Part shown: positions 5,143 to 45,557 of the stretch, piece after piece
Layout of the letters: every line of letters starts with the position of its first letter
Position numbering within the stretch: the stretch's first letter is position 1
DNA from: Candidatus Daviesbacteria bacterium
GTDB taxonomy: Bacteria > Patescibacteriota > Microgenomatia > Daviesbacterales > UBA10151
Length of the DNA: 45,707 nt
Direction of reading: 5' to 3'
Assembly (NCBI GenBank): GCA_030648645.1
Contig: JAUSHL010000008.1
Location: 1-45,707 of the forward strand
Notes under the pieces: generated by a model
What the model saw: the letters and a program-made list of their open reading frames with translations, nothing else
Databases searched by the model: none
Told to the model about the DNA's origin: nothing
Program-made: the position numbers and the translations under genes

Positions 5143-6885
5143 ATGGTGAAAGTGGCCTTAATAACTGTAAATTACAATGGTTTGAAAGATACTTTAGAAT
5201 TTTTGGAATCACTGCAAAAATTAGATACCAAAGACTTGGAAGTGAAAACCATTGTGGTAGATAATGGTTCTTTTGATTCCAGTGTTCCAAAAATCTCAGA
5301 AAAATTTCCCAAAATAGATCTTGTCCAAACAGGATCCAATAAGGGTTTTACCGGAGGATTTAATAAAGGTTTGGAATATGGGGGAGCTTGGGGGGCAGAT
5401 TATTTTTTACTGATTAACAATGATACAGAAATTGGATCCTCAGATTTATTAAAAAGTCTAATTAAAACTCTAGAAAAAAATTCTAATGCAGGTTTAGTTG
5501 CTCCTAAAATTTATTTTGCCAAAGGGTATGAATATCAAAAAAATTATGAAGAAAAAGATTTGGGTAAAGTAATTTGGTACGGTGGCGGAAGTTTTGATTG
5601 GGATAATGTGATGAGTAAACACATTGGAATTGATGAAGTAGATTCAGGGAAATATGATGAAATAAAAGAAACTGGTTTTATTTCCGGATGTTGTTTTTTA
5701 ATGAAAAAAGAAGTGATAGAAAAAGTTGGCGGATTTGATGAAAAACTTTTTGCCTATTTTGAAGATAATGATTTTTTGCAAAGGGTAAAGAGTGCTGGTT
5801 TTCAATTATTTTATAATGGGAAAGTTTTTATTTATCATAAAGTTTCTCAAACTGCAGAGATTGGTTCGGAATTTGCCGATTACTTTGTTACCAGAAATAG
5901 ATTAACTTTTGGCTTCAAATATGCCAAAACGAGAACTAAATTTGCTCTCCTTAGACAATCATTGGGGTTTTTAATAACTGGAAGAAAAATGCAAAAAAGG
6001 GGAGTGTGGGATTTTTTTCTTCAAAAAAAAGAGGGAGAAAAAAAATTAGTAAAAATAAATTCCAACCCTGATTTTCCTAAAAAACTATCTATAGTTATCG
6101 TAAATTATAATACTAAAGATTTAACAGAAAAACTGCTTGAAAGCATCTATCAAAATAAATTATGTCAAAATTTTAAAGAAGTAGAAGTGGTACTTTTAGA
6201 TAATGGTACATTAGATTGTTGCGAGGAGATGGTAAAAAAATTTAAAGAAGTAAAATATTTTAAAAATTTAGAAAATTTAGGTTTTTCCAAAGGTTACAAT
6301 AGAGTCATCAAATATTCCACGGGACAATATATTTTAATGCTAAATTCTGATATTGAAATTTTGGATAACAGTGTGGAAGAAATTTTAAAAGTAGCAGAAG
6401 AAAAAAACGAAAAAGCAGTTTTAGGGGGAAAACTTTATTTTCCGGATAAGTCTTCTCAGGATTCCTGTTTTTTCTTACCGACAATTTCCGGAGCTTTCAA
6501 GGAATATTTTTTGAATAAAAAAGGAACTTATTTTATGTTTGTGCCAAAATCGGATAGTCCAAGTAAAGTTGAGGGTTTGATCATGGCTTGTTTCTTAATT
6601 CCCAGAAAAGTGATTGATCGGGTAGGCTATTTAGATGAGGGAACTTTTATCTTTTTTGAAGATATTGAATATTGCCGGAGATTAAGAGATAACAATATTC
6701 CTATTTATTTTTGTCCAAAAGCAGAATTTATTCATCATCATGGTGCTTCACATAAAAAGTTAAAGGAGGGGGAGGCTTATAAAATGTTAGTCAAAGGTTC
6801 CAAACATTATCATGGAATTTTTTATTATTCTTTATTATATTTAGTAATCCTCTTTGGCCAGAAGTTTAGGAAAATTATCTATTAG
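5143..6885 (+). CDS. two-module family 2 (GT-A) glycosyltransferase
   Basis: Two tandem modules open with VALITVNYNG and LSIVIVNYNT. Each has DNGS/DNGT and later FEDND / FEDIE acidic motifs. Confidence 0.75.
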   Translation: MVKVALITVNYNGLKDTLEFLESLQKLDTKDLEVKTIVVDNGSFDSSVPKISEKFPKIDLVQTGSNKGFTGGFNKGLEYGGAWGADYFLLINNDTEIGSSDLLKSLIKTLEKNSNAGLVAPKIYFAKGYEYQKNYEEKDLGKVIWYGGGSFDWDNVMSKHIGIDEVDSGKYDEIKETGFISGCCFLMKKEVIEKVGGFDEKLFAYFEDNDFLQRVKSAGFQLFYNGKVFIYHKVSQTAEIGSEFADYFVTRNRLTFGFKYAKTRTKFALLRQSLGFLITGRKMQKRGVWDFFLQKKEGEKKLVKINSNPDFPKKLSIVIVNYNTKDLTEKLLESIYQNKLCQNFKEVEVVLLDNGTLDCCEEMVKKFKEVKYFKNLENLGFSKGYNRVIKYSTGQYILMLNSDIEILDNSVEEILKVAEEKNEKAVLGGKLYFPDKSSQDSCFFLPTISGAFKEYFLNKKGTYFMFVPKSDSPSKVEGLIMACFLIPRKVIDRVGYLDEGTFIFFEDIEYCRRLRDNNIPIYFCPKAEFIHHHGASHKKLKEGEAYKMLVKGSKHYHGIFYYSLLYLVILFGQKFRKIIY

Positions 6886-9820: not shown

Positions 9821-9849
9821 TTGCATCTATCAAATTAAATTGTTAACAT
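9821..9849 (+). promoter_or_regulatory. sigma70-like promoter of the six-gene operon (TTGCAT-17-TAACAT with TGn extension)
   Basis: Hexamers and spacing read directly. AGAAAGAGGAA ribosome-binding site at 9860-9870, ahead of the ATG at 9876. Confidence 0.5.
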
Positions 9850-9875
9850 AGCCACAATCAGAAAGAGGAACTTTA

Positions 9876-10652
9876 ATGAATGTAGCCATTATCTCTCCAA
9901 CAGCTTATTTGAATGAATTATCATGCTATAGAAAGAATTCCTATCATATGGTACTTGCGCAAAGAGTATTAGAAGATGAACACTATGCAAATTTTTATAA
10001 TCTTTATAAAGGATTTACTATTTTAGATAATGGGGCATGTGAGTTAAAAAGATCAATCCATTTTGAAGCTCTACTAAAAGTTATAGAACTGATTCATCCT
10101 AATGTAGCTGTCTTACCTGATATATTAGGGGACAGTGAAGCAACATTAAAATTAAGTAATTTATTTTTAAATAAAATTAGTCAAAAAGACTGCGAAAATT
10201 TAATTTTTATGGGGGTTTGCCAAGGTCAAACTAAAAAAGAATGGCTAACAAGCTTTAATTTTTTTGCAAAGCACGACAAAGTCAAAATGATTGGAATTAG
10301 CAACACAGAAGCAATGTTTAAAGCAGATAAGAATACTTTCAGCAGAGTACAAACTTTAAAATATTTATTAGATCATAATCTTTTACCTCAAAATAAAAAA
10401 ATACATTTACTTGGTCTTCCTGATTCAGGTCACTTAGAGTTGTTCAAGATGAAACAATATAATTGTGTCGAAGGAGTTGATACAAGTGCACCTGTAGTTC
10501 ATGGAACCGCGGGGATATCATTTAAAGAAAATTTATCATATAAAAAAATTCGACAATATTTAGATTCAGCAACGATCTTAAATAAAAGACAAATTGCGTT
10601 AATAAAACAAAATATTGATGTATTATTTGTATCTTCGGGATATCTATTATGA
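9876..10652 (+). CDS. minimal TGT-superfamily (DpdA-like) transglycosylase candidate, 258 aa
   Basis: ILDNGACE resembles the TDSGGFQ loop. VLPDILGD is also present. HLLGLPDSGHLELF...VEGVDTSAPVVHG resembles LMGVGxPxD...GxDMFDCVxPTRxxRxG. No CxCxxC..H zinc site. Confidence 0.45.
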   Translation: MNVAIISPTAYLNELSCYRKNSYHMVLAQRVLEDEHYANFYNLYKGFTILDNGACELKRSIHFEALLKVIELIHPNVAVLPDILGDSEATLKLSNLFLNKISQKDCENLIFMGVCQGQTKKEWLTSFNFFAKHDKVKMIGISNTEAMFKADKNTFSRVQTLKYLLDHNLLPQNKKIHLLGLPDSGHLELFKMKQYNCVEGVDTSAPVVHGTAGISFKENLSYKKIRQYLDSATILNKRQIALIKQNIDVLFVSSGYLL

Positions 10653-12226
10653 GTAATTTAGAAAGAAAGAGTACTAGAATTTCTTTTGAAGGAGAGAGAG
10701 GAACAGGAAAATCTACATTAGCCCAAATATTCTTAATAAATCAAGAGATTTTGGGTCGAAAAGCTATTATAAATAGACAAGTTGATACTGGTAAATCTAC
10801 GAATCCGTCACATTTAAAGACGTTAGAACTTCATACAGAATGGGAGAAGTTAATTACTGATGGTGAAGAATCCGATCGGGTTGAGTCAATCGCAATGACG
10901 AAATTTCACTATGCTCTTAAATGGTTTATTCAAGAAGAGAACATCTTCACGACTATACGAGAGAGTTGTAATACATTTATTTGTGATAGAGATATCGATT
11001 CTATTGTTTTGTACGCGGCAGTTGAGATGATTATTTCGAATTCTAGAAAGTATCAAACAAATGAATCCAGAATCAATTTAATCAAATCACTTTGGGAAAC
11101 AACAAAATCAGTAAAAGAATTACCAGATATCACTTTCTGTTTTACAAGTAAAGACCATGAATTAACTCTTAAGAGATCATATCTATCAAAAGAATTAACT
11201 CAAGATGAATTTGATTTAAATCCAATCCAAAGAGCATCCCAAGAATTAGCTTCAATTTTGCTCAGTGATGTGGTTAAAACAAGACCGATAGAAGAAGGAA
11301 AGAAAATTTATATGATCAATATAGATGGTAAAAGATTTGATGAGGTAGCTCGTGTAGTTGATATTCTATATTCAAAACCATATTCTCTAATTAAGAAAGA
11401 AATAGATTACCCAATTTTAAGTATAAGAAGCGCAGATTCAAAAAAGCTGATTCCTAAATCTTTGGCGGATTTAATTACTGCACTAGTGGAATCTACAAGT
11501 GGATCTGCTTTTCCATCAAAAGAAGATGTATCATTGGGATTTTCAAATTGTGTATTTTCTAATGCATCATTAGTGTATTGGGCACAAGAATTAAAACTGA
11601 GCAATTTGATTTTTACATCTGTAGAAGAAGACGGAATAACAAATACAAATCCAGTACATTGGGTTACTTTTGAAGTCTTAGATGATGAAGTTGGCAGAGT
11701 GATTGATATTACACCGTTTAATCCTCCGATAATTGGATCAAACGTACGTTTTAAGCAAAATAATGATGTTATACAAATTGCTGAACCATTTGACGGTACT
11801 CGATTAAATTGGAGGCAGTTGAGAATTGATAATCCTCGAATTGCAATAGAACTGATGGAATTAGCAAACTTATCTCAGTTAATACAGCCAGATTATGTAA
11901 TTAATCATGCATATAAAATGTATATGTCTGGCGATAGAGAAGGACATATCGTATTCGCAGGTGTAAGGTTGGTTAGAATGCTTGAGAAATATAACAAAAT
12001 GGATGAAATTTATAAATATATTAAAGAAATGGTTGCTAGTTTTCCAGATAACTTAGTTGTTATTAGAGAAATTACTAGACTTAATAAAGAGTATGATCTA
12101 GAATTAGATGAATTTACAGGAACAATTAAGAGAGCAAGAAATCGAATTGTAAATGCTATAAATATCATGGATAATTTAAATGCTAGGAAATTTAAAGATT
12201 ACTATAAATGGGTTATCGAGAACTAA
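10649..12226 (+). CDS. fusion protein: thymidylate/nucleotide-kinase-like N-domain plus transglutaminase-like Cys-His-Asp fold and helical C-terminus
   Basis: ISFEGERGTGKST P-loop and ICDRDIDSIVLYAA (DRxxxSxxxY) match Tmk. GFSNCVFSNASLVYWAQEL ... VHWVTFEV ... RVIDITP matches the transglutaminase core pattern C..H..D. ATGA overlap with the upstream ORF. Confidence 0.5.
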   Translation: MSNLERKSTRISFEGERGTGKSTLAQIFLINQEILGRKAIINRQVDTGKSTNPSHLKTLELHTEWEKLITDGEESDRVESIAMTKFHYALKWFIQEENIFTTIRESCNTFICDRDIDSIVLYAAVEMIISNSRKYQTNESRINLIKSLWETTKSVKELPDITFCFTSKDHELTLKRSYLSKELTQDEFDLNPIQRASQELASILLSDVVKTRPIEEGKKIYMINIDGKRFDEVARVVDILYSKPYSLIKKEIDYPILSIRSADSKKLIPKSLADLITALVESTSGSAFPSKEDVSLGFSNCVFSNASLVYWAQELKLSNLIFTSVEEDGITNTNPVHWVTFEVLDDEVGRVIDITPFNPPIIGSNVRFKQNNDVIQIAEPFDGTRLNWRQLRIDNPRIAIELMELANLSQLIQPDYVINHAYKMYMSGDREGHIVFAGVRLVRMLEKYNKMDEIYKYIKEMVASFPDNLVVIREITRLNKEYDLELDEFTGTIKRARNRIVNAINIMDNLNARKFKDYYKWVIEN

Positions 12227-12236
12227 TTAATTAACT

Positions 12237-12737
12237 ATGAAAATTGCTACACTTTGTTATTTAATTGATTCAAAAAAGAAAAGAGTTTTATTGGGTAAGA
12301 AAAAATATGGTGGAGCAAAAGGGAAATTAAATGGTTTTGGAGGCAAAGTTGAAACAAAAGATATAACAATCCTTGAGTGTATAAAAAGAGAGTTTTTAGA
12401 AGAAACAGGTATTTCTTTAAATAATCCCAAATTATCAAATGTAGTATTTTTTAATTGGGAAGGAGAAAAAGAGAATCTTGTTGTTTATGTGTATAAATGT
12501 ACTAATTGGAGTGGTGATCCTAAAGAATCAGAAGAAATGACTGCAGATTGGTATAAATTAGATTCTATCCCAATTGGAAAAATGTGGGCATCAGACTCTA
12601 TCTGGTTTCCTTTAGCTATAAAATATTCAGAGTTAATAATAAATTTATACTTTCAACCTAATAAGGATCAACCAAAAGAAGTATCTATAAAATTCAATGA
12701 AAAATTATATGAAAATATCCACGAAAAAACTAACTAA
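12237..12737 (+). CDS. MTH1/NUDT1-like Nudix (d)NTP pyrophosphohydrolase
   Basis: VLLGKKKYGGAKGKLNGFGGKVE..REFLEETGI Nudix box and MWASDSIWFPLAIK. These are close to human MTH1 segments (GRWNGFGGKV, MWPDDSYWFPLLL) as I remember them. Confidence 0.7.
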   Translation: MKIATLCYLIDSKKKRVLLGKKKYGGAKGKLNGFGGKVETKDITILECIKREFLEETGISLNNPKLSNVVFFNWEGEKENLVVYVYKCTNWSGDPKESEEMTADWYKLDSIPIGKMWASDSIWFPLAIKYSELIINLYFQPNKDQPKEVSIKFNEKLYENIHEKTN

Positions 12738-13629
12738 AATTCCATTATATTTAGCAAGGGTATTAGATTCTGATAATAATCAAATTAAATTAGAGCAGCT
12801 CCGCGTAAAAGAATATTCAAAGAAAATTACTAGCCTAAGAGGAACAAGAATAGCAATTATACCATGGAGCGCAGGTCTAGATTCTACTGCATCATTACTT
12901 ATGGCGTTAGAATCAGGTAATCGAGTGATTACTGTAAACTTCAATTATGGACAGCAATACTGGAATAAAGAAAGAGAAACAATAAATAAAATCCGCCAAA
13001 TGATATTTAAAAGATATCCACAGGCTTTAAGCCTTTGGCTACAGCATAAAGAAGTTGATATCTCTTGGCTTGATAAAGCACTGAAAAAAGAGTTTCCAGG
13101 AGAATGGCAGCATATTTTCCCAATGAGAAATTTCACCATATTAATGGAGGTAATGAAAGTTATTCCTATAAATAATTACAAATATAGAGAGATCTGGTTT
13201 AGCTGTGTCCAGGGAGAAATTCCATTTTCAGGTGGTGACAAGAGTATAGTATTTTTAACAGAAGTTGCGAGAATATTTAGTTTAAACAAATTCCTTCTTG
13301 TTCTTCCATTAATTGGGCTCAACAAGACTGATATTGTTAAGTGGGCGCTAAATAAATCTTATAGATTTGAGATCATTAAAGAAACAATATCCTGTTTCAG
13401 CGGGAAAGGAGAAAAACATTGCGGTAGCTGTCTAGCTTGTTTTAATAGATTGGTGGGATATTATTCCGCTGCTGTTGTAAAGAATTGTGGATTTATCCCT
13501 AACTATAATCTACTAAAACCATTTATTGATAAATATAAAAGTGCGTTCAAAAAAGAGAATTATTATTCTCCTTCTCGAAAAAATGATATCTTTAATCTAA
13601 TTTATTTTTTAGAAAATAAAAATTTATGA
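12697..13629 (+). CDS. QueC-like PP-loop ATPase (7-cyano-7-deazaguanine synthase family) with ~50-aa N-extension
   Basis: SAGLDS PP-loop, NFNYGQQ, FPMRN, PLIGLNKTDIV, and zinc site C-x8-C-x2-C-x2-C (CFSGKGEKHCGSCLAC). The start may be the ATG at 12697 or at 12709; both overlap the Nudix ORF. Confidence 0.7.
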   Translation: MKNYMKISTKKLTKIPLYLARVLDSDNNQIKLEQLRVKEYSKKITSLRGTRIAIIPWSAGLDSTASLLMALESGNRVITVNFNYGQQYWNKERETINKIRQMIFKRYPQALSLWLQHKEVDISWLDKALKKEFPGEWQHIFPMRNFTILMEVMKVIPINNYKYREIWFSCVQGEIPFSGGDKSIVFLTEVARIFSLNKFLLVLPLIGLNKTDIVKWALNKSYRFEIIKETISCFSGKGEKHCGSCLACFNRLVGYYSAAVVKNCGFIPNYNLLKPFIDKYKSAFKKENYYSPSRKNDIFNLIYFLENKNL

Positions 13630-14492
13630 TAAGCTTTATTATCCCAAGCTATAAGAGATCACAAGTAATTACAGGAGTTTTAATTGCTTTAAAAAATCAG
13701 ACAATAATTAAAAAAAATCCTTGTGAGATATTAGTAAGTATTGATAATATCGATCCGGAAATTAAGAATTATACTTCATATCTTGAACAAATCCAGAAAA
13801 TATTTACAGATTTTCAATTACAATTAAAGATAATTTTAGTAATAAACAATACACAAGGATTAGTTCTAGCAAAGAACAAGGCGATAAATCTGGCAAAATA
13901 CCCTTATATTATGATGATGGATGATGATTTATATATGGAGGACGATTATGTCGAAAGTTTATTAAAGGATTTAAAGATAAAAGAAGTTGGTGCAGTTTCA
14001 GGCTTTATCGTTTCATATAGACCAGCAATTTCTCATACCCAAAAGTCCGATATTATTAATAATATTTCTCAAATAGATAATCTCCAAACATTACATATTA
14101 AAAAAACAATAGATGGTTGGCGATCGGTATTCGGAAAAAAAGAGCAAGTGATGAACTGGATAAAAATTCGCGATTCTATCCCTCGACAAAAAAGATATAA
14201 TATGGATTATTTAATAAACTCATATCTTTTTAAGAAAGAAGCATTTATAAAGGTAAAAGGATATAATATTAAACTAAATAGTAAGACTTCAGCACATGAA
14301 GAGGTTGATTTTACATTTAGGATTAAAAGATTAGGATATAATCTTATTTTTAATCCACATCATATGATGTGGCATCTTACGGTTGGTAAGGGTGGTATTT
14401 ATAAAGGATTAGATAGAAAATCTAGTAAAAGGGTCTTAGAGGAAGAATATAACGAACAACTTCCCAAATTAATAAGGTCTATATCAAGATAA
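13626..14492 (+). CDS. family 2 (GT-A) glycosyltransferase
   Basis: ISFIIPSYKRSQVI N-terminus and MMDDDLYME DxD motif. ATGA overlap with the QueC-like ORF. Confidence 0.7.
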   Translation: MISFIIPSYKRSQVITGVLIALKNQTIIKKNPCEILVSIDNIDPEIKNYTSYLEQIQKIFTDFQLQLKIILVINNTQGLVLAKNKAINLAKYPYIMMMDDDLYMEDDYVESLLKDLKIKEVGAVSGFIVSYRPAISHTQKSDIINNISQIDNLQTLHIKKTIDGWRSVFGKKEQVMNWIKIRDSIPRQKRYNMDYLINSYLFKKEAFIKVKGYNIKLNSKTSAHEEVDFTFRIKRLGYNLIFNPHHMMWHLTVGKGGIYKGLDRKSSKRVLEEEYNEQLPKLIRSISR

Positions 14493-14514
14493 AACGAATT
14501 ATTATAATTTAAAA

Positions 14515-14769
14515 ATGTGTAGTCCTAAAAAAGTGTGTTGCTTTGTCTGTTATAAAAACTTCCCAAAATCTGTTAAATCTCAGAGATGTAAAACTTGTGG
14601 AGATTTTAAATGTCCGCTTTGCAAAAGTTGCCTTTGCGATTTAACAGTTGGGGAGCAAAGAGTTGCACTAGCAATGATGCGAACTTATAAGCCAATCCTT
14701 GGAAATGATTATGACTTTTCAGTCCATGGAGCGATTGAAAAACGTATTAAAGCTAGTTTGAAAAAATGA
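14515..14769 (+). CDS. Cys-rich zinc-ribbon protein (84 aa)
   Basis: CCFVC..x13..CKTCGDFKCPLCKSCLC gives ten Cys residues in CxxC-type pairs. Last ORF of the operon. Confidence 0.55.
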   Translation: MCSPKKVCCFVCYKNFPKSVKSQRCKTCGDFKCPLCKSCLCDLTVGEQRVALAMMRTYKPILGNDYDFSVHGAIEKRIKASLKK

Positions 14770-21729: not shown

Positions 21730-21808
21730 GAAAAATAACTATGATCTTGACAGTTATTGATTTTCAGCTTATCATTATTCGTATAATCATCCTTATGTGC
21801 ATACAACA

Positions 21809-22780
21809 ATGAATACCTTTGATAAACAAAATTTAAATAATTTAGAAGGCATTGATGACTTCTTTGTTTATTTGCAAACTAACAACTATTCTCCGAAAAC
21901 TTTATATAGCTATGAAAAAGATTTATATATATTTTCCCATTTTTTAACTTTGCGTAGAATTTCTATCTTTGATTTGGATAAAAAATTGATTAATGAATTT
22001 AAAGCTTATGTAGCTTCAGATGATCGTCAAACTTCAGGTGGTGCAGATATGAAAAAAGAAAGGATTTCTTCTGCCAGTCTTAATCGTTGTTTATCAGCCG
22101 TCCGTGCGTATGTCCGTTTCTTAATTGATACTGATATTAAGTGTCCGGTATCTCCTGATCAATTTAAAATGGTTAAAAGAGAAAGACCTCATCCCCATGT
22201 GGCTGATTTAAATGAAATTATTTCATTGATTGAATCCCCTTCAAAGTTTGAAAATGATCTTATCATAGCCTCAAGAAACCGAGCTATTTTGGAAGTTTTG
22301 TTTGCTACAGGAATGAGAATATCTGAACTGGTATCTTTAAACAAAAGAGATATTAATGATTCGGGTAGAATTTTCATTACCGGTAAGGGTAGAAAACAAA
22401 GATTTGTTTATTTAACTGAACGGGCTCAAACAGAACTTGATGTTTATCTTAAGTTAAGAGAAGACAATCAACAGGCTTTATTTGTCCCCACGAAGGGTAA
22501 AACAATAAATAATTCACAACGGAGAATATCTTCAAGATATATTCAAGATAAAATTCAACATTATCGGGAACAATTAAAAATTGATCTACCTATTAGTCCC
22601 CATGCACTTCGTCATGGTTTTGCTACTTATTTGGCAGAAGAGGGGGCTTCTCCTGCTGCTATTCAGATATTATTAGGTCATGAATCTCTCAATACTACTA
22701 CCCGTTATATCAATGCTTCTGATAAATTTGCCGAAGAAACACATCGTAAATACCACCCCCTTTCCAAAAATGAAAACTGA
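21809..22780 (+). CDS. tyrosine recombinase (XerC/XerD-like)
   Basis: ATGMRISEL (Arg I), HALRHGFAT (H-x-x-R), LLGHESLNTTTRY (His and catalytic Tyr). The ORF is open from GTG 21797; ATG 21809 is preferred. Confidence 0.85.
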   Translation: MNTFDKQNLNNLEGIDDFFVYLQTNNYSPKTLYSYEKDLYIFSHFLTLRRISIFDLDKKLINEFKAYVASDDRQTSGGADMKKERISSASLNRCLSAVRAYVRFLIDTDIKCPVSPDQFKMVKRERPHPHVADLNEIISLIESPSKFENDLIIASRNRAILEVLFATGMRISELVSLNKRDINDSGRIFITGKGRKQRFVYLTERAQTELDVYLKLREDNQQALFVPTKGKTINNSQRRISSRYIQDKIQHYREQLKIDLPISPHALRHGFATYLAEEGASPAAIQILLGHESLNTTTRYINASDKFAEETHRKYHPLSKNEN

Positions 22781-37368: not shown

Positions 37369-40620
<3,252 letters not shown>

Positions 40621-40643: not shown

Positions 40644-41327
40644 CTAGCTCTCATTATTGTGAGGTAGTAATAACATTAAATATTCTAAAACTGCTCTGAT
40701 GTTTACATTTTGCTTTGCCCATTTCTCCGCTTCCAGTAAATCCTTCAGAAAATTATTATCCAACCCCCGAGGTTGGATATGATTGATTAATTGGTTTCTA
40801 AAATAAGCGGTCATTGTAAAAAGAAAATTTTCTTTATCTTCAAGCTTTTCTATAAATTTAAATCTTTCTTCCATATTTGCTTCCAAAAGTTTCTCAATTT
40901 CTTCCTGATATTTTTGTCCAACTAATCCAACCTCGGGGGTTGGAGTATTTTGGAGATTAATTATTTTGCATCGGGAAATAATGGTTGGCAGAAGTTGATC
41001 TTCTGATCTTGCTCCTAAAATTAAAGAAACACAGTCCCCTGCTTCTTCTAAAGTTTTAAGCAGTGCGTTTTGGGCATCCAAACTTAAATTTTCGGCAACT
41101 AAAAGCACAACAGCCTGATTTTTTCCTTGATATGGTTTTAAACTTAAAAATTCCTGAATTTTTCTGCTCTCCCCTATCCCCAACTTTTCTTCTTGCGAAA
41201 ACCAAAGGGTGTTGGGGTGATTTTGTGAAAGATCTAAACCCTTTAAAATTTGCTCAATTTCACTTTGTCTTACCGTAATATCAGGATGAATTACTAAACT
41301 TGAAATCATGAAATGATTATACTGCAT
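40644..41327 (-). CDS. holB: short DNA polymerase III delta-prime-like clamp-loader subunit (no P-loop) containing two REP hairpins
   Basis: LSLDAQNALLKTLEE and LLPTIISRCK match the sensor-1/SRC region of delta-prime. The start could be ATG 41327, ATG 41309 or GTG 41333. Confidence 0.5.
   Translation of the reverse strand: MQYNHFMISSLVIHPDITVRQSEIEQILKGLDLSQNHPNTLWFSQEEKLGIGESRKIQEFLSLKPYQGKNQAVVLLVAENLSLDAQNALLKTLEEAGDCVSLILGARSEDQLLPTIISRCKIINLQNTPTPEVGLVGQKYQEEIEKLLEANMEERFKFIEKLEDKENFLFTMTAYFRNQLINHIQPRGLDNNFLKDLLEAEKWAKQNVNIRAVLEYLMLLLPHNNES
40757..40780. repeat. REP-like hairpin TATCCAACC-CCCGA-GGTTGGATA(T) inside the holB-like gene
   Basis: Same sequence as the RAYT-flanking REP. Translated as HIQPRGLD. 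Confidence 0.9.
40926..40944. repeat. REP-like hairpin TCCAACC-TCGGG-GGTTGGA inside the holB-like gene (opposite orientation)
   Basis: Inverted relative to 40757-40780. Translated as TPTPEVGL. Confidence 0.9.
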
Positions 41328-41392
41328 TGACACTAATCATCAACTCTGGCAATAATAGAGATAAGGTCTGCTATTTGGTGGACGAGGAAATT

Positions 41393-43090
41393 ATGGTACA
41401 AACTGCTCAACTTGGGGTTGATGATATTTTAGCAAAACAAGGGGTTTTAACCCCTGATCAACTTTCCTCAATTAAACTGGAAGCAATTAACAGTGGTAAA
41501 CAGATTGAGCAGATTATTGAAGAACATCAATTAGCATCTCCGGCAAGGCTTGCTTCCGCCAAAGCTCAAATTTTAGGTGTTTCCTATATAAATTTGGAAG
41601 GCAAGGCTATATCTTCTGAAATCTTAAATTTTATTCCGGAAGCCGTTGCCCGTCGTTATCGCTTAATCCCCTTTGATAGAAAGAGTGATAAGTTGTTTGT
41701 GGCCATGGCTGATCCGTTAGATTTACAAATTGTTCAATTTATTGAAAAAAAATCAGGGTTATTTGTAAAACCATATTTGGCAGTAGCAGATGATATTTTA
41801 AAAGCCATTTCCGATCAGTACTCCCAGAATTTAACTACAGAAGTAACTTCGGCTCTGCGGGAAGTTACATCTTATAATAAACCAAAAGAAGAAGCAGATA
41901 AAACAGAAATAATTCATGAAGCTCCGGTGGCCAATATTATTTCTCAACTTTTAGATTATGCTGTTAAATCTAAAGCTTCCGATATTCATATTGAACCATT
42001 AGAGGATAAAACCAGAGTCAGATATAGAATTGATGGAATTTTACATGAGAAAGTTATTTTACCGAGAGGGGTACATGATGCACTGGTTTCCAGAATTAAA
42101 ATTCTTTCCAGTTTAAAGATTGAGGAAAAAAGATTACCACAAGATGGACGTTTTAGCTACACTTCCGGCAAATCTATTTTTGACCTGCGTGTTTCGACAG
42201 TCCCAACTATTTATGGTGAAAAAGTGGTAATGAGGTTATTGCCAAAAACTTCAGTTGCTCCAACTCTTATGGATTTAGGACTTCGTGGGTTGGCACTAAA
42301 AAATTTAGAAAATCAAATCTTAAGACCACATGGCATTATTCTTATCTGCGGTCCAACCGGATCCGGAAAAACTACAACTTTATATTCAATTTTAACTAAA
42401 ATTTCAACTACAAAAGTTAATATTTTAACAATTGAAGATCCGGTTGAGTATCAAATCCCCGGAGCTAATCAAATTCAGGCCAATCCTCAAATTGGTTTAA
42501 CTTTTGCAGCAGCTCTACGTTCATTTTTGCGTCAGGATCCGAATATCATGCTGGTCGGAGAAATCCGTGATAGTGAAACTGCAGATTTGGCAATTCAGGC
42601 AGCTCTGACCGGCCATGAAGTTTTTTCAACTTTACATACCAACACTGCTTCAGGCTCACTGCCCCGACTTTTAGATATGGGCATGGAGCCATTTCTTTTA
42701 GCCTCATCTATCAATGCTGTTGTCGGTCAACGAATACTCCGAAAAATTTGTTCTCATTGTAAAACTACTTATACTCCTCCACCGGAAATTGTAGAAAATA
42801 TCCGTAAAAATTTGGGAAATTTAATGAAAGAAGGCAATCAGATTTCTCTTTATAAAGGAGTGGGCTGTGCTGAATGTGGTAATTCAGGTTATTCAGGCAG
42901 AGTGGGGATTTTTGAAGTTTTGGTAGTTTCACCAAAGATAATGAGATTAATTTTAGGCAGATCTTCTGCCTCGGAAATGGAAGCAGAGGCCGTTATAGAG
43001 GGAATGGTGACCTTAAAACAGGACGGATATATGAAGGTTTTGGAAGGAGTTACAACTTTGGAAGAAGTGTTGCGGGTTGCTGAGGACTAA
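41393..43090 (+). CDS. pilB: type IV pilus assembly ATPase (GspE/PilB family)
   Basis: N-terminal T2SSE_N-like domain, Walker A GPTGSGKTTT, Asp/His boxes, and tetracysteine CSHC..x28..CAEC. GAGGAAATT SD before the ATG at 41393. Confidence 0.9.
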   Translation: MVQTAQLGVDDILAKQGVLTPDQLSSIKLEAINSGKQIEQIIEEHQLASPARLASAKAQILGVSYINLEGKAISSEILNFIPEAVARRYRLIPFDRKSDKLFVAMADPLDLQIVQFIEKKSGLFVKPYLAVADDILKAISDQYSQNLTTEVTSALREVTSYNKPKEEADKTEIIHEAPVANIISQLLDYAVKSKASDIHIEPLEDKTRVRYRIDGILHEKVILPRGVHDALVSRIKILSSLKIEEKRLPQDGRFSYTSGKSIFDLRVSTVPTIYGEKVVMRLLPKTSVAPTLMDLGLRGLALKNLENQILRPHGIILICGPTGSGKTTTLYSILTKISTTKVNILTIEDPVEYQIPGANQIQANPQIGLTFAAALRSFLRQDPNIMLVGEIRDSETADLAIQAALTGHEVFSTLHTNTASGSLPRLLDMGMEPFLLASSINAVVGQRILRKICSHCKTTYTPPPEIVENIRKNLGNLMKEGNQISLYKGVGCAECGNSGYSGRVGIFEVLVVSPKIMRLILGRSSASEMEAEAVIEGMVTLKQDGYMKVLEGVTTLEEVLRVAED

Positions 43091-43099
43091 AATGAGTGT

Positions 43100-43165
43100 A
43101 ATTTTAAATTTTTAATTTTAAATTTTAAATTAGTTTTAAAATTTGATTTTTAAAATTTGAGTTTT
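43100..43165. repeat. family-C AT-rich intergenic repeat
   Basis: AATTTTAAATTTTTAATTTTAAATTTTAAATTAGTTTTAAAATTTGATTTTTAAAATTTGAGTTTT. Related to 26868-26930. Confidence 0.7.
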
Positions 43166-43183
43166 GGGCAGCATTTTAAAAAT

Positions 43184-44254
43184 ATGAATATTCATCAATT
43201 ATTAGAATTAACAGTTGCAAGAAAAGCTTCAGATCTACATTTGGTTGTAGGTTATCCTCCTACTCTTAGAATTAACGGAGAATTAGTTGAAGTTGCCGGT
43301 AGTGTCCTTCTGGATGACAATGAGATGGGTAATTTAATATCTCCCCTGCTTACTCAGACACAAAAACAAACTTTTGAAAAAGATTTAGAGTTAGATTTTG
43401 CAATCAATTTACAAAATCAAGCCAGGTTTAGGGTAAATATTTTTCAGGAGAGAGGTCACTTAACTGCCAGTTTGAGACTTATTCCTTTAATTATTCCGGA
43501 ATTATCTAATTTGGGATTACCGCCGGCTGTGGAAAAATTTGCTGATCTAAAACAGGGTTTAATTTTAATAACCGGACCTACCGGTCATGGAAAATCAACT
43601 ACCTTGGCTGCTTTAATTAATAAGATAAATCAGACACGAAATGCTCATATTTTAACAGTTGAAGATCCGATTGAGTATATTTACCCCAAGGCTAAAGGTT
43701 TAATTTCTCAAAGGGAATTATTGGTTGATACCAAAGCTTGGCCAAATGCTTTGCGGGCAGCACTTCGGGAAGATCCTGATGTGGTTTTGGTGGGAGAAAT
43801 GAGAGATCTGGAAACTATTATGGCAACACTGACAATTGCAGAAACCGGTCATTTGGTTTTTGCCACACTTCATACCAACAGTGCTGCTCAAACTGTTGAT
43901 CGAATCATTGATGTTTTTCCGGAACAGCAACAATCTCAGGTGAGATTACAACTTGCCTCAGTTATTGAGGCAGTGGTTTCACAACGATTAATTCCCACAA
44001 TTAAACCGGGCAGGGCTTTGGCAGTTGAACTTTTGATTTCCACTCCTGCTCTGGCATCTATTATCCGTGATGGTAAAACTCATTTGATTGATAATTTAAT
44101 TCAAACTTCAGCAGAACTGGGTATGGTGAGTTTGGAAAGATCACTGGTTTCTTTAGTTAAAAATGGGAGCATCAGTTTTGAAATGGCTCAAAGTTATTCT
44201 CTCCGTCCTGATTTACTGGCAAAACTTTTGACTGAAGCTGAACGAGGGAGATAA
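43184..44254 (+). CDS. pilT: twitching-motility retraction ATPase (PilT family)
   Basis: ASDLHL, Walker A GPTGHGKSTT, VGEMRDLET, GHLVFATLHTN. The ATG at 43184 is preferred over the TTG at 43157. Confidence 0.9.
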   Translation: MNIHQLLELTVARKASDLHLVVGYPPTLRINGELVEVAGSVLLDDNEMGNLISPLLTQTQKQTFEKDLELDFAINLQNQARFRVNIFQERGHLTASLRLIPLIIPELSNLGLPPAVEKFADLKQGLILITGPTGHGKSTTLAALINKINQTRNAHILTVEDPIEYIYPKAKGLISQRELLVDTKAWPNALRAALREDPDVVLVGEMRDLETIMATLTIAETGHLVFATLHTNSAAQTVDRIIDVFPEQQQSQVRLQLASVIEAVVSQRLIPTIKPGRALAVELLISTPALASIIRDGKTHLIDNLIQTSAELGMVSLERSLVSLVKNGSISFEMAQSYSLRPDLLAKLLTEAERGR

Positions 44255-44345
44255 TAAACCGATTTAACTCGAGTTTGCAACTCTCATTAAATGGTTTGAA
44301 CTCAAAATTTTGATTAAAAGTTGCAGATTGGAGTATTTTGAGTAT
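44254..44345 (+). promoter_or_regulatory. conserved intergenic module, copy 2: hairpin plus promoter-like hexamers
   Basis: Near-identical to 2117-2212. The ATG of pilC follows immediately, with no SD. Confidence 0.6.
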
Positions 44346-45557
44346 ATGGCTATTTTTAAATATGTTGCCAAAGACATGCAAGGTGTATATCACAAAGGTG
44401 AAATTGAAACTGCTGATGAATCACATGCAGTTGCACTTCTCCGCAAAAAGAAATTAATTATCACTTCTTTAAAAATTAAAGGTGCTTCAGGAAATATGCC
44501 TTGGGATAAATTTATGAATAGGGTGCCATTTTCTGAGGTAGTGATTATGACCAGACAGTTGGCTACTATGATTGAAGCCGGATTGGTTTTATCAGAAGCT
44601 TTGGATATTTTGGAAGATCAACAGGAAAATAAACATTTTAAAGCTGTACTGGAAAATGTCTCTAAAGATATAAAAGCAGGTTTGGATTTTGCCACAGCTT
44701 TGGAAAAACATCCTGATATTTTTCCGCCTCTTTATAGCAAATTAGTCAAAGCCGGTCAGGCTTCCGGAAAACTGGATACAATTTTACTCGAACTTGCCAA
44801 AAATTTAGAAAAAGAAAGAGAATTTAAAAGCAGGGTCAGGGGAGCAATGATTTACCCAATTGTGATTGTGTTTATGATGATTGTAGTAATGTGTATCATG
44901 GTATTTTTTGTGATGCCAAAGCTAATTGGTCTTTATAAGGATTCAGGAATGGATTTGCCCTTGCCTACTAAAATTATGATTACAGGGTCAGACATTATTA
45001 TTAATTTTTGGTGGTTGATTTTGATGGTAATCATTGGAATAGTTATTCTTTTTAAAAAATTTGCTGCTACTACCAAAGGCAGATTATTTATTGATCAAAG
45101 AATACTAAAAACACCGGTTTTGGGAAAAGTTACATCTGTCGTAATTTTAACCAGTTTTACCAGAACATTTGGGTTATTAATTGCTTCCGGTCTTTCCATT
45201 TTAGAATCAATTCAAATTGTCAGTGATATTACCGGTAACAAAGTTTATCAAAACTGTTTGGAAACAGCTTATAAAGGAGTGGAAAAAGGTTTACCTTTAT
45301 CCACCCAACTTTTATCGATGAAAGAGTTTCCTAAAATTGTGGGTCAGATGGTTAAAACCGGAGAAGAAACAGGAAAATTAGATGAAATTATATTAAAACT
45401 GAGTGATTATTTTCAGTCAGAAGCTGATAATGCTTTAAAAAATATTACAACTTTAATAGAACCGATAGTATTAGTGATTTTGGGTATAGGAGTAGGGATT
45501 TTGGTAATCTCTATTATTCTTCCTATCTATCAATTAACTACCAATATAAGTCATTGA
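44346..45557 (+). CDS. pilC: type IV pilus inner-membrane platform protein (PilC/GspF family)
   Basis: Two GspF repeats (RQLATMIEAGL.., FTRTFGLLIASGL..) and 3 TM segments. The ATG at 44346 is preferred. Confidence 0.9.
   Translation: MAIFKYVAKDMQGVYHKGEIETADESHAVALLRKKKLIITSLKIKGASGNMPWDKFMNRVPFSEVVIMTRQLATMIEAGLVLSEALDILEDQQENKHFKAVLENVSKDIKAGLDFATALEKHPDIFPPLYSKLVKAGQASGKLDTILLELAKNLEKEREFKSRVRGAMIYPIVIVFMMIVVMCIMVFFVMPKLIGLYKDSGMDLPLPTKIMITGSDIIINFWWLILMVIIGIVILFKKFAATTKGRLFIDQRILKTPVLGKVTSVVILTSFTRTFGLLIASGLSILESIQIVSDITGNKVYQNCLETAYKGVEKGLPLSTQLLSMKEFPKIVGQMVKTGEETGKLDEIILKLSDYFQSEADNALKNITTLIEPIVLVILGIGVGILVISIILPIYQLTTNISH

Follow-up and report, generated by a model that had tools for sequence, protein, structure and literature searches.

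7-Deazaguanine modification of DNA is known from phages and from bacterial dpd islands. Here, we describe a stretch of 45,707 nucleotides (the window) from Candidatus Daviesbacteria bacterium, comprising positions 1 to 45,707 of contig JAUSHL010000008.1 in GenBank assembly GCA_030648645.1. The window carries five closely packed genes, ORF1 to ORF5, at positions 9876-14492 of the + strand. We consider it quite probable that they form a cassette for producing a 7-deazaguanine derivative and inserting it into nucleic acid, DNA being the most likely target. A reading of the region from its sequence alone had described six same-strand ORFs behind one promoter-like site, and all six are present on the + strand between 9876 and 14769. 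The predicted features are as follows:

ORF1: 9876-10652, + strand, 258 amino acids (aa), putative DpdA3-type transglycosylase of the tRNA-guanine transglycosylase (TGT) superfamily
ORF2: 10649-12226, + strand, 525 aa, putative kinase-like / Cys-His-Asp / helical-tail protein
ORF2, N-terminal domain (approximately residues 1-250): 10649-11398, + strand, thymidylate-kinase-like P-loop domain, ATGA-coupled to ORF1
ORF2, middle domain (approximately residues 262-395): 11432-11833, + strand, orphan domain with invariant C301, H337-W338, R350, D353 and P356-F357
ORF2, C-terminal helical (TPR-like) tail: 11834-12226, + strand, helices H396-H524 with a predicted local distance difference test score (pLDDT) of 70-86
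ORF3: 12237-12737, + strand, 166 aa, putative MTH1/NUDT1-type Nudix (d)NTP pyrophosphohydrolase
ORF4: 12709-13629 (306 aa) or from the alternative start 12697 (310 aa), + strand, putative divergent QueC-like PP-loop ATPase
ORF5: 13626-14492, + strand, 288 aa, putative soluble family 2 glycosyltransferase (GT2; GT-A) with a DDD motif
ORF6: 14515-14769, + strand, 84 aa, Cys-rich, probably outside the system
Upstream intergenic region: 9821-9875, + strand, AG-rich ribosome-binding site AGAAAGAGGA and a weak TTGCAT...TAACAT promoter-like pair, read from the sequence

ATGA stop/start overlaps join ORF1 to ORF2 (10649-10652) and ORF4 to ORF5 (13626-13629), as had been noted before. The further statement that the other gaps are at most about 20 nucleotides (nt) holds for the 10 nt between ORF2 and ORF3 and roughly for the 22 nt between ORF5 and ORF6, but not for ORF3 and ORF4, which overlap instead. 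This overlap is 29 nt if ORF4 starts at 12709, the start that agrees with the alignment of its orthologues, and an overlap of 26-29 nt between the two genes is kept at four other loci. The proposed promoter could not be substantiated: a promoter scan gave 23 sites compared with 31 ± 5 in shuffles and listed none at 9821 on the + strand, and the TTGCAT...TAACAT pair is no evidence of a promoter. ORF6, which had been counted as part of the unit, has no family match in Pfam, NCBIfam, PADLOC and PHROG-type scans and no tblastn counterpart in any related locus. We rejected it as a member of the system; in the relatives, unrelated genes come after the GT2 gene.

The operon has a GC content of 30.0%, compared with 34.3% in the rest of the window. 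A foreign-DNA signature was rejected, since this value lies inside the gene-to-gene spread (34.2 ± 2.9% for background genes) and codon usage is unremarkable. The flanks encode GyrA, an intein-bearing GyrB, Mur ligases, RuvC, YebC, a pseudouridine synthase and type IV pilus proteins. On these housekeeping flanks, we also rejected a prophage or phage origin of the window, which is cellular chromosome.

The transglycosylase and its partner proteins

The AlphaFold model of ORF1, obtained with a 29-member alignment, is a (beta/alpha)8 barrel with a pLDDT of 96 and a predicted template modelling score (pTM) of 0.92. The top 19 matches that Foldseek found for it in the PDB are all TGTs (E 2e-7 to 2e-5; template modelling score TMq 0.59-0.69), which upholds the earlier description of ORF1 as TGT-like; the loops quoted in its favour, ILDNGACE and LLGLPDSG...VEGVDTSAPVVHG, are likewise present. 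The best viral fold match is CGPG_00065 of Cellulophaga phage phiST (locus tag confirmed), with a TMq of 0.86 and an E of 2e-18. Searching phage genomes with ORF1 by tblastn retrieved the 'DNA guanine transglycosylase DpdA' of Flavobacterium phage immuto (28% identity, 3e-12) as well as Campylobacter phage CP220 gp056, phiST CGPG_00065 and others, with E values ranging from 3e-12 to 1e-5. When the cellular ORF1 clade was compared with four phage DpdA3 proteins using hhalign, the alignment was full length (246 columns), with a probability of 100% and an E of 1.1e-40. As phiST CGPG_00065, CP220 gp056 and immuto DpdA are founding members of the DpdA3 subfamily (Hutinet et al. 2023, PMC10516641), ORF1 is, judged by homology, a full-length member of that subfamily and not an orphan.

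The link to TGT proper rests on the fold and on the DpdA3 homology, since a match at the level of sequence is missing. ORF1 does not match the Pfam TGT family (PF01702), which is matched by one of the 29 family members at an E of 0.022; the ORF1-family profile finds no TGT among PDB sequences, only chance matches; and hhalign gives no significant alignment of the family to the verified E. coli TGT sequence. ORF1 does match two PHROGs of unknown function and, weakly, DUF6610, which is matched by 8 of the 29 family members (best 1.4e-5) and represents the DpdA4 family (PMC10516641).

Ten residues are invariant in the ORF1 family, namely D51, N52, E56, P81, D82, Q116, G117, H177, G180 and D202. 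D51, D82, Q116 and D202 cannot be aligned to TGT by sequence, but they lie at strand ends in the order of the TGT motifs DSGG, DE, QG and FDC, and the three aspartates may thus be equivalent to the catalytic Asp102, Asp156 and Asp280 of TGT. The family has no conserved Cys cluster that would form the Zn-binding CxCxxC...H subdomain, and the protein ends just past the barrel. In the model, ORF1 therefore looks like a minimal barrel, resembling a small-molecule enzyme. Net charge and pI were dropped as clues to DNA binding because they do not discriminate, E. coli TGT being acidic as well.

ORF2 belongs to a rare family, with 16 proteins at E ≤ 1e-10 in an exhaustive HMMER search of 1.84 billion representatives. 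The same search returned no stand-alone relatives of the middle domain, a metagenome scan returned ordinary kinase-domain matches only, and no phage relatives of ORF2 were found. The N-terminal domain has an invariant Walker A motif (G15-K21) and an invariant D113-R114-x-x-D117 motif in 13 family members, and the thymidylate kinase family PF02223 is matched by five of seven orthologues (best 6.4e-6), in line with the thymidylate-kinase-like start recognized in the sequence-only reading. Against the thymidylate kinases in the PDB, the family profile reaches 2e-4 at best and only in the P-loop region. We therefore describe the N-terminus as a thymidylate-kinase-like domain, with a weak assignment as a kinase. 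In the middle domain, C301, H337 and D353 are invariant in the 13 sequences, and a helix followed by strands is predicted by the low-confidence AlphaFold model (overall pLDDT 59, and below 50 in this domain; three-sequence alignment). The motif order and the predicted helix-then-strands order suggest that the fold could be papain- or transglutaminase-like. Weak TPR matches occur in one ORF2 orthologue.

ORF3 matches NUDIX (PF00293) at 2e-13. The profile of its orthologues aligns over the full length with NUDT1/MTH1 structures at 1.8e-32 to 1e-28, compared with 8e-13 for the best bacterial MutT, and ORF3 is thus by sequence an MTH1/NUDT1-type Nudix protein, as had been proposed. MTH1 converts purine (d)NTPs into monophosphates. 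The conserved motifs of ORF3 are LLGxKKYGxAxGxxNGFGGK...REFxEET and MWxSD. In the counterpart of the MTH1 pocket, N32 (Asn33 of MTH1), W117 and D120 are invariant, and the Asp119 position is occupied by Ser or Gly, so that the specificity may differ from that of MTH1.

ORF4 had been credited with the full QueC signature, most of which is there: it matches QueC (PF06508; 1e-21, 77.8 bits compared with a cut-off of 22) and the PDB QueC structure 3bl5 (2e-9), and it keeps the PP-loop SAGLDS, NYGQ, PxRN and the Zn cysteines C233, C242, C245 and C248 (C-x8-C-x2-C-x2-C). The substrate motif YPDC, however, has become GGDK with only the Asp kept, and the score for TIGR00364 (64.1 bits) is below the equivalog cut-off of 150.3. 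Together with extensions of approximately 45 aa at the N-terminus and 50 aa at the C-terminus that are specific to the cellular clade, these differences lead us to file ORF4 as a divergent QueC-like protein, apart from QueC proper. The cellular QueC-like proteins are basic (pI 8.5-9.7, with a net charge of +3 to +8 in the N-terminal extension), whereas phage QueC is acidic (pI 5.5-6.0). QueC-like enzymes can join 7-carboxy-7-deazaguanine (CDG) to amines other than ammonia (10.1101/2025.04.06.647259).

ORF5 is the best conserved gene of the cassette (67% mean column identity), and the earlier assignment as a GT2 with a DDD motif stands: PF00535 is matched at 5e-15 (56 bits compared with a cut-off of 23.3), and DDD is invariant. 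All seven orthologues also weakly match PF20691, the TET-associated DNA glycosyltransferases (TAGT), with a best E of 1.8e-7; the ORF5 of the window scores 19.8 bits against a cut-off of 27.5. ORF5 would accordingly be a GT2 with weak similarity to TAGT. No TAGT match at E ≤ 1e-3 was found for the window's other GT2, and no phage relative of ORF5 was found.

Cellular relatives and phage DpdA3 modules

At least six other contig families (L001, L003/L009, L005/L008, L012, L016 and L017) carry ORF1 to ORF5 in unchanged order, with genes that overlap or lie at most about 45 nt apart and with a conserved start-stop overlap of ORF1 and ORF2. The flanks consist of housekeeping genes that vary by locus. 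One of the contigs, L009, is 1.05 Mb long, comes from 'Patescibacteria group bacterium BroJett019' and has a layout identical to that of L003. QueD and QueE are encoded directly upstream in the same operon in L001, L016 and L017, and in L003 and L005 the gene upstream, divergently transcribed, encodes a Vut_1 (YhhQ-family) transporter. Transporters of this type function in queuosine salvage, which fits the earlier idea of a salvage-fed pathway. The accompanying claim that QueD and QueE are lacking is correct for the window, where tblastn found no Vut_1, QueD, QueE, FolE or QueF, but not for the cassette family as a whole. The five genes are inherited as a unit, which in the relatives is linked to QueD-QueE or Vut_1. 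The recurrence of the unit, the TGT-type fold of ORF1 and the QueC-family match of ORF4, all of which the sequence-only reading had named as points on which its idea could fail, turned out in its favour.

The viral survey, which was crude, comprised 78 IMG/VR loci (L019-L096), whose DpdA3-like proteins are 23-33% identical to ORF1; no closer viral relative was found. Since the viral relatives of ORF1 are distant and ORF2 and ORF5 have none in phages, the cassette is, by these sequence comparisons, cellular, and only the transglycosylase is common to phages. Its hosts are probably Patescibacteria with small genomes.

Some related loci deserve separate mention. L005/L008 (GCA_964444295.1, CAYUGO010000011.1) is labelled 'uncultured Gammaproteobacteria bacterium' yet is syntenic with the BroJett019 cassette, and its ORF1 is 48% identical to that of the window; the label or the binning may be wrong. 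In L015 (GCA_964481785.1, 3046-6767), a 32-aa ORF and then a 366-aa gene, cut off by the contig end, stand behind a DpdA3-like gene. This locus also has a separate Nudix gene, 1.2 kb upstream of the DpdA3-like gene and with an NAD_binding_1 gene on the other strand in between, and it may be a rearranged or decaying cassette. A His_Phos_1 gene, which could provide a nucleotide phosphatase step, adjoins the GT2 end of the cassette in L012 (5421-6098, - strand) and L016 (6178-6789, + strand).

The phage neighbourhoods share several elements with the cassette. Among the 78 viral loci, QueC is encoded in 48, QueD in 42, QueE in 51 and FolE in 47. A family A DNA polymerase gene starts at most 2.5 kb downstream of the DpdA3-like gene in 53 of 56 loci, and 37 of 63 loci encode a MazG-like protein at most 2.5 kb upstream of it. 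The immuto genes run NTP pyrophosphatase (PRA-PH/MazG-like), DpdA3, DpdN, 'thymidylate kinase' and QueF, with PolA slightly further away, and CP220 has DpdA3 between an HD/AAA_33 protein and a 'thymidylate kinase'. phiST has the order QueD, QueE, FolE, MazG, hypothetical protein, AAA_18 P-loop protein, DpdA3, hypothetical protein and PolIII. In Bacillus phage BSP7, the gene for the P-loop protein BSP7_056 (GKST...CDRF, read by eye) overlaps the start of the DpdA3-like gene, and PolI comes after. NTP pyrophosphatases thus accompany DpdA3-type genes in four unrelated folds (MazG/PRA-PH, HD and, in the cellular cassette, Nudix), and a P-loop kinase-like protein stands beside DpdA3 in several lineages, though not in all. 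A search of the text of the paper that defined DpdA3 showed that the adjacency of kinase and polymerase genes is not discussed there and that the phiST MazG is mentioned in passing (PMC10516641). In L010 (7195-9597) and L011 (11250-13637), the DNA polymerase A beside a phage DpdA3-like gene has an N-terminal UDG-family domain.

The cassette therefore resembles the phage DpdA3 modules (phiST, immuto and CP220; PMC10516641) in its full-length homologous transglycosylase, in its linkage to QueD, QueE and QueC-type genes, and in the adjacent (d)NTP pyrophosphatase and P-loop kinase-like gene. It differs in being cellular and chromosomal, in having an MTH1-type Nudix protein in place of MazG or HD, in the fusion of the kinase-like domain to an orphan Cys-His-Asp domain and a helical tail, and in its GT2, which has no counterpart in the phage modules; it also lacks an adjacent DNA polymerase as well as FolE, QueF, DpdL, DpdM and DpdN. 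With the bacterial dpd cluster (DpdA-DpdK of Salmonella Montevideo, which combines dPreQ0/dADG with restriction), the cassette shares a cellular setting and the pairing of a TGT-family enzyme with an NTPase partner. However, its transglycosylase is DpdA3-like and not bDpdA, and its Nudix, QueC-like, GT2 and ORF2 proteins are extra. As had been stated before, the ParB-like DpdB and the restriction-side proteins are missing: PADLOC, Pfam and NCBIfam gave no DpdB, DpdC or DpdD-K among the six proteins, and none was found among the 20 neighbours scanned.

Type IV CBASS (cyclic-oligonucleotide-based antiphage signalling system) likewise pairs a divergent QueC-like protein (Cap9) with a TGT-fold protein (Cap10) outside queuosine biosynthesis, but it has no Nudix, kinase-like or GT2 partners. 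Judged by its sequence content, the cassette belongs neither to the bacterial dpd islands nor to type IV CBASS or Qat. A role in defence through protein deazaguanylation, in which the QueC-like protein would couple CDG to a protein amine and the TGT-like protein would bind the product, is highly improbable: Cap10 is found among the fold matches of ORF1 (rank 21, TMq 0.58), QueC-like Cap9 ligates CDG to a protein N-terminus (10.1101/2025.04.06.647259) and there are weak QatC matches, but these reach 24 bits compared with a cut-off of 280, no CD-NTase, Qat A/B/D or obvious effector was found among the six cassette proteins and approximately 20 other window proteins scanned, and ORF1 is much closer to DpdA3 than to Cap10 and keeps the acidic residues expected of an active transglycosylase.

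Possible routes to a modified base

Complete replacement of G, by dADG, dDG or fdPreQ1, is the pattern associated with phage DpdA3, compared with 0.1-30% replacement for the other DpdA subfamilies (PMC10516641). DpdA3 alone could not be made to work in E. coli, and the ADG nucleoside was detected in infected cells; these published data leave the route open, although post-replicative insertion was argued for DpdA3 in the same paper (PMC10516641). We tentatively favour, at somewhat less than even confidence, a route through the nucleotide pool that would lead to a modified 7-deazaguanine in DNA, possibly a glycosylated one, by analogy with the hydroxymethylcytosine pathway of phage T4. That pathway has the same logic of parts, consisting of a dCTPase (gp56), a dCMP hydroxymethylase (gp42), a dNMP kinase (gp1) and alpha/beta-glucosyltransferases. 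The analogy is one of mechanism only: no proteins are homologous, the target is cytosine and not guanine, T4 is a virus and not a cell, and action at the nucleotide level is our inference for the cassette.

In such a route, CDG would come from QueD and QueE or from an imported precursor. The QueC-like ORF4 would activate the 7-carboxylate of CDG with ATP, followed by amidation, and the Cys-His-Asp domain of ORF2 might supply the ammonia or another amine, analogous to the Gat-QueC fusions of phages. The Nudix protein ORF3 would convert dGTP into dGMP, on which the DpdA3-type ORF1 would swap guanine for the deazaguanine base at the level of the mononucleotide. The kinase-like domain of ORF2 would then re-phosphorylate the product for incorporation by the replicative polymerase, and glycosylation by the GT2 ORF5 would take place on the nucleotide or, after incorporation, on the base in DNA. 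The cell would probably benefit by having its own DNA protected from nucleases. We infer the modified base, its glycosylation, the sugar, DNA rather than RNA as the target, and all of the chemistry of the cassette.

We favour this route because NTP pyrophosphatases, often a P-loop kinase, and a DNA polymerase are encoded beside phage DpdA3-like genes, and because it gives every conserved gene a role. It also fits the 100% replacement in DpdA3 phages, the bare barrel of ORF1, the failure to reconstitute DpdA3 alone and the recurrent pyrophosphatase partner. Its most far-reaching version appears unlikely, namely that DpdA3-type enzymes are not DNA but mononucleotide transglycosylases that convert (d)GMP into 7-deaza-(d)GMP, and that some Patescibacteria, by means of the Nudix dGTPase, the base swap, a dedicated kinase and the glycosyltransferase, replace much of their genomic G pre-replicatively with a glycosylated 7-amido-type 7-deazaguanine. 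If true, this would be the first cellular genome with a hypermodified base derived from the nucleotide pool and the first sugar-bearing 7-deazaguanine in DNA.

Several points weigh against the pool route. To our knowledge, the substrates of all characterized TGT and DpdA enzymes are polynucleotides. The cassette lacks a polymerase of its own, and for a cell, replacing dGTP at the pool level would be a drastic change. No FolE gene was seen in any cassette. MazG genes are common in phage replication modules anyway, and a kinase-like protein was found near the DpdA3-like gene in only one of the 78 viral loci with the seed set used. PF02223 misses the ORF2 of the window itself, in keeping with its weak assignment as a kinase, and when ORF2 was compared with the phage kinase genes, the CP220 match was confined to the P-loop and no significant match to immuto was found. 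In ten orthologue segments, the Cys-His-Asp domain has no Pfam match at E ≤ 10, including the transglutaminase core that the sequence-only reading had put forward for checking and for which only the motif order speaks, and a Foldseek search with the ORF2 model gave nothing below E 0.009, only weak TPR-type noise.

The strongest competitor, which we regard as rather doubtful, is post-replicative exchange. Here, ORF1 would swap G in finished DNA for the base made by the QueC-like ORF4, with ORF2 serving not as a nucleotide kinase but as an ATPase partner, a functional counterpart of DpdB. The base in DNA would then be acted on by the GT2 and perhaps also by the QueC-like protein, which is basic, and the Nudix protein would have a side role such as pool sanitation. 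Insertion by the bacterial dpd system needs the ATPase DpdB, and the conserved start-stop overlap of ORF1 and ORF2 suggests a complex. The polymeric substrates of the characterized enzymes and the published proposal for DpdA3 (PMC10516641) point the same way, as do the weak TAGT-like similarity of all GT2 orthologues and the high pI of the cellular QueC-like proteins, which would suit nucleic-acid binding. What post-replicative exchange leaves without a role is the MTH1-type pyrophosphatase, together with the non-homologous NTP pyrophosphatases beside phage DpdA3. In addition, the P-loop domain of ORF2 is of a small-molecule kinase type, ORF1 has neither an obvious nucleic-acid-binding addition nor the Zn subdomain, and the complete replacement in DpdA3 phages is unlike the partial replacement seen elsewhere (PMC10516641).

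Alternatively, the product could be a small molecule, that is, a glycosylated 7-deazapurine nucleoside or nucleotide serving as an antibiotic, antiviral or signal, but we consider this distinctly unlikely. TGT-like exchange would place the base on a ribose phosphate, kinase, Nudix and phosphatase would set the phosphorylation state, and the GT2 would add the sugar, as in huimycin and dapiramicin. Tubercidin biosynthesis is finished by a Nudix hydrolase, the His_Phos_1 gene described above adjoins two of the cassettes, and ABC transporter genes come after the cassette in L003. Natural products with a glycosylated 7-deazapurine have been described along with their glycosyltransferases (10.64898/2026.04.15.718813). 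Huimycin and dapiramicin are precedents for a sugar on a 7-deazaguanine scaffold, like the glycosyl-queuosines of eukaryotes, which arise by action on the queuosine cyclopentenediol in tRNA. However, the huimycin and dapiramicin pathways have no DpdA/TGT-like enzyme, known deazapurine clusters using a phosphoribosyltransferase, and the absence of dpdA is treated as a marker of secondary metabolism in the cluster paper. Characterized relatives of ORF1 are known only from phages whose DNA is modified, the cassettes share no conserved exporter or phosphatase, and the hosts appear to be Patescibacteria with small genomes.

Modification of RNA is less plausible still, and we rate it as quite improbable. 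The TGT-like enzyme would put a 7-deazaguanine, possibly glycosylated, into tRNA, replacing or supplementing the canonical TGT of these reduced genomes. That the best solved-structure matches of ORF1 are TGTs, that eukaryotic tRNA contains glycosylated queuosines and that the upstream transporters are of a queuosine-salvage type would all agree with this. Nevertheless, the Zn subdomain and the C-terminal regions with which TGT handles tRNA are missing from ORF1. Structurally and by sequence, ORF1 is also far closer to phage DpdA3 (hhalign 1e-40) than to TGT, and base exchange in tRNA has no place for a kinase and an NTP pyrophosphatase.

Significance and neighbouring genes

In the literature, we found no description of the cassette, of a cellular DpdA3, of a DpdA-tied glycosyltransferase or of a pre-replicative 7-deazaguanine route, and no DpdA3 biochemistry beyond that in PMC10516641. 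The DpdA3 branch is tied to complete G replacement, and its reaction has never been reconstituted. Until now, this branch had been described in viruses only; here, it is found in a stable, vertically organized cassette on cellular chromosomes. Three of its partners, the MTH1-type Nudix protein, the kinase-like/Cys-His-Asp fusion and the GT2, are new to described systems. If the cassette modifies DNA, it would represent a new means by which the genomes of ultra-small episymbiotic bacteria are marked or shielded and would probably yield a new, possibly glycosylated, natural DNA base in a cellular organism. It would also offer a compact five-gene set with which to address the question, left by the phage literature, of whether DpdA3 acts on DNA or on the nucleotide pool. 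DNA modified in this way could be a source of bias when these organisms are studied by sequencing, restriction-based methods or nanopore base-calling.

The remainder of the window holds a few further genes of note. A cluster for type IV pilus/secretion ATPases at 41327-45557 (+ strand) encodes a PilB-like T2SSE protein with MshEN, a PilT-like T2SSE protein and a PilC-like T2SSF protein; such clusters are typical of DNA-scavenging episymbionts, which bears on the idea of self-DNA protection. A 580-aa protein with two GT2 domains is encoded at 5143-6885 (+ strand), 3 kb upstream of the cassette and outside its conserved part; it is the protein for which no TAGT match was obtained. At 21797-22780 (+ strand), approximately 7 kb downstream of the cassette, lies a gene for a tyrosine recombinase (Phage_integrase with a SAM-like N domain). 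Finally, the GyrB gene at 37369-40608 (- strand) has an Intein_splicing match at residues 453-873, between the GyrB and Toprim domains.

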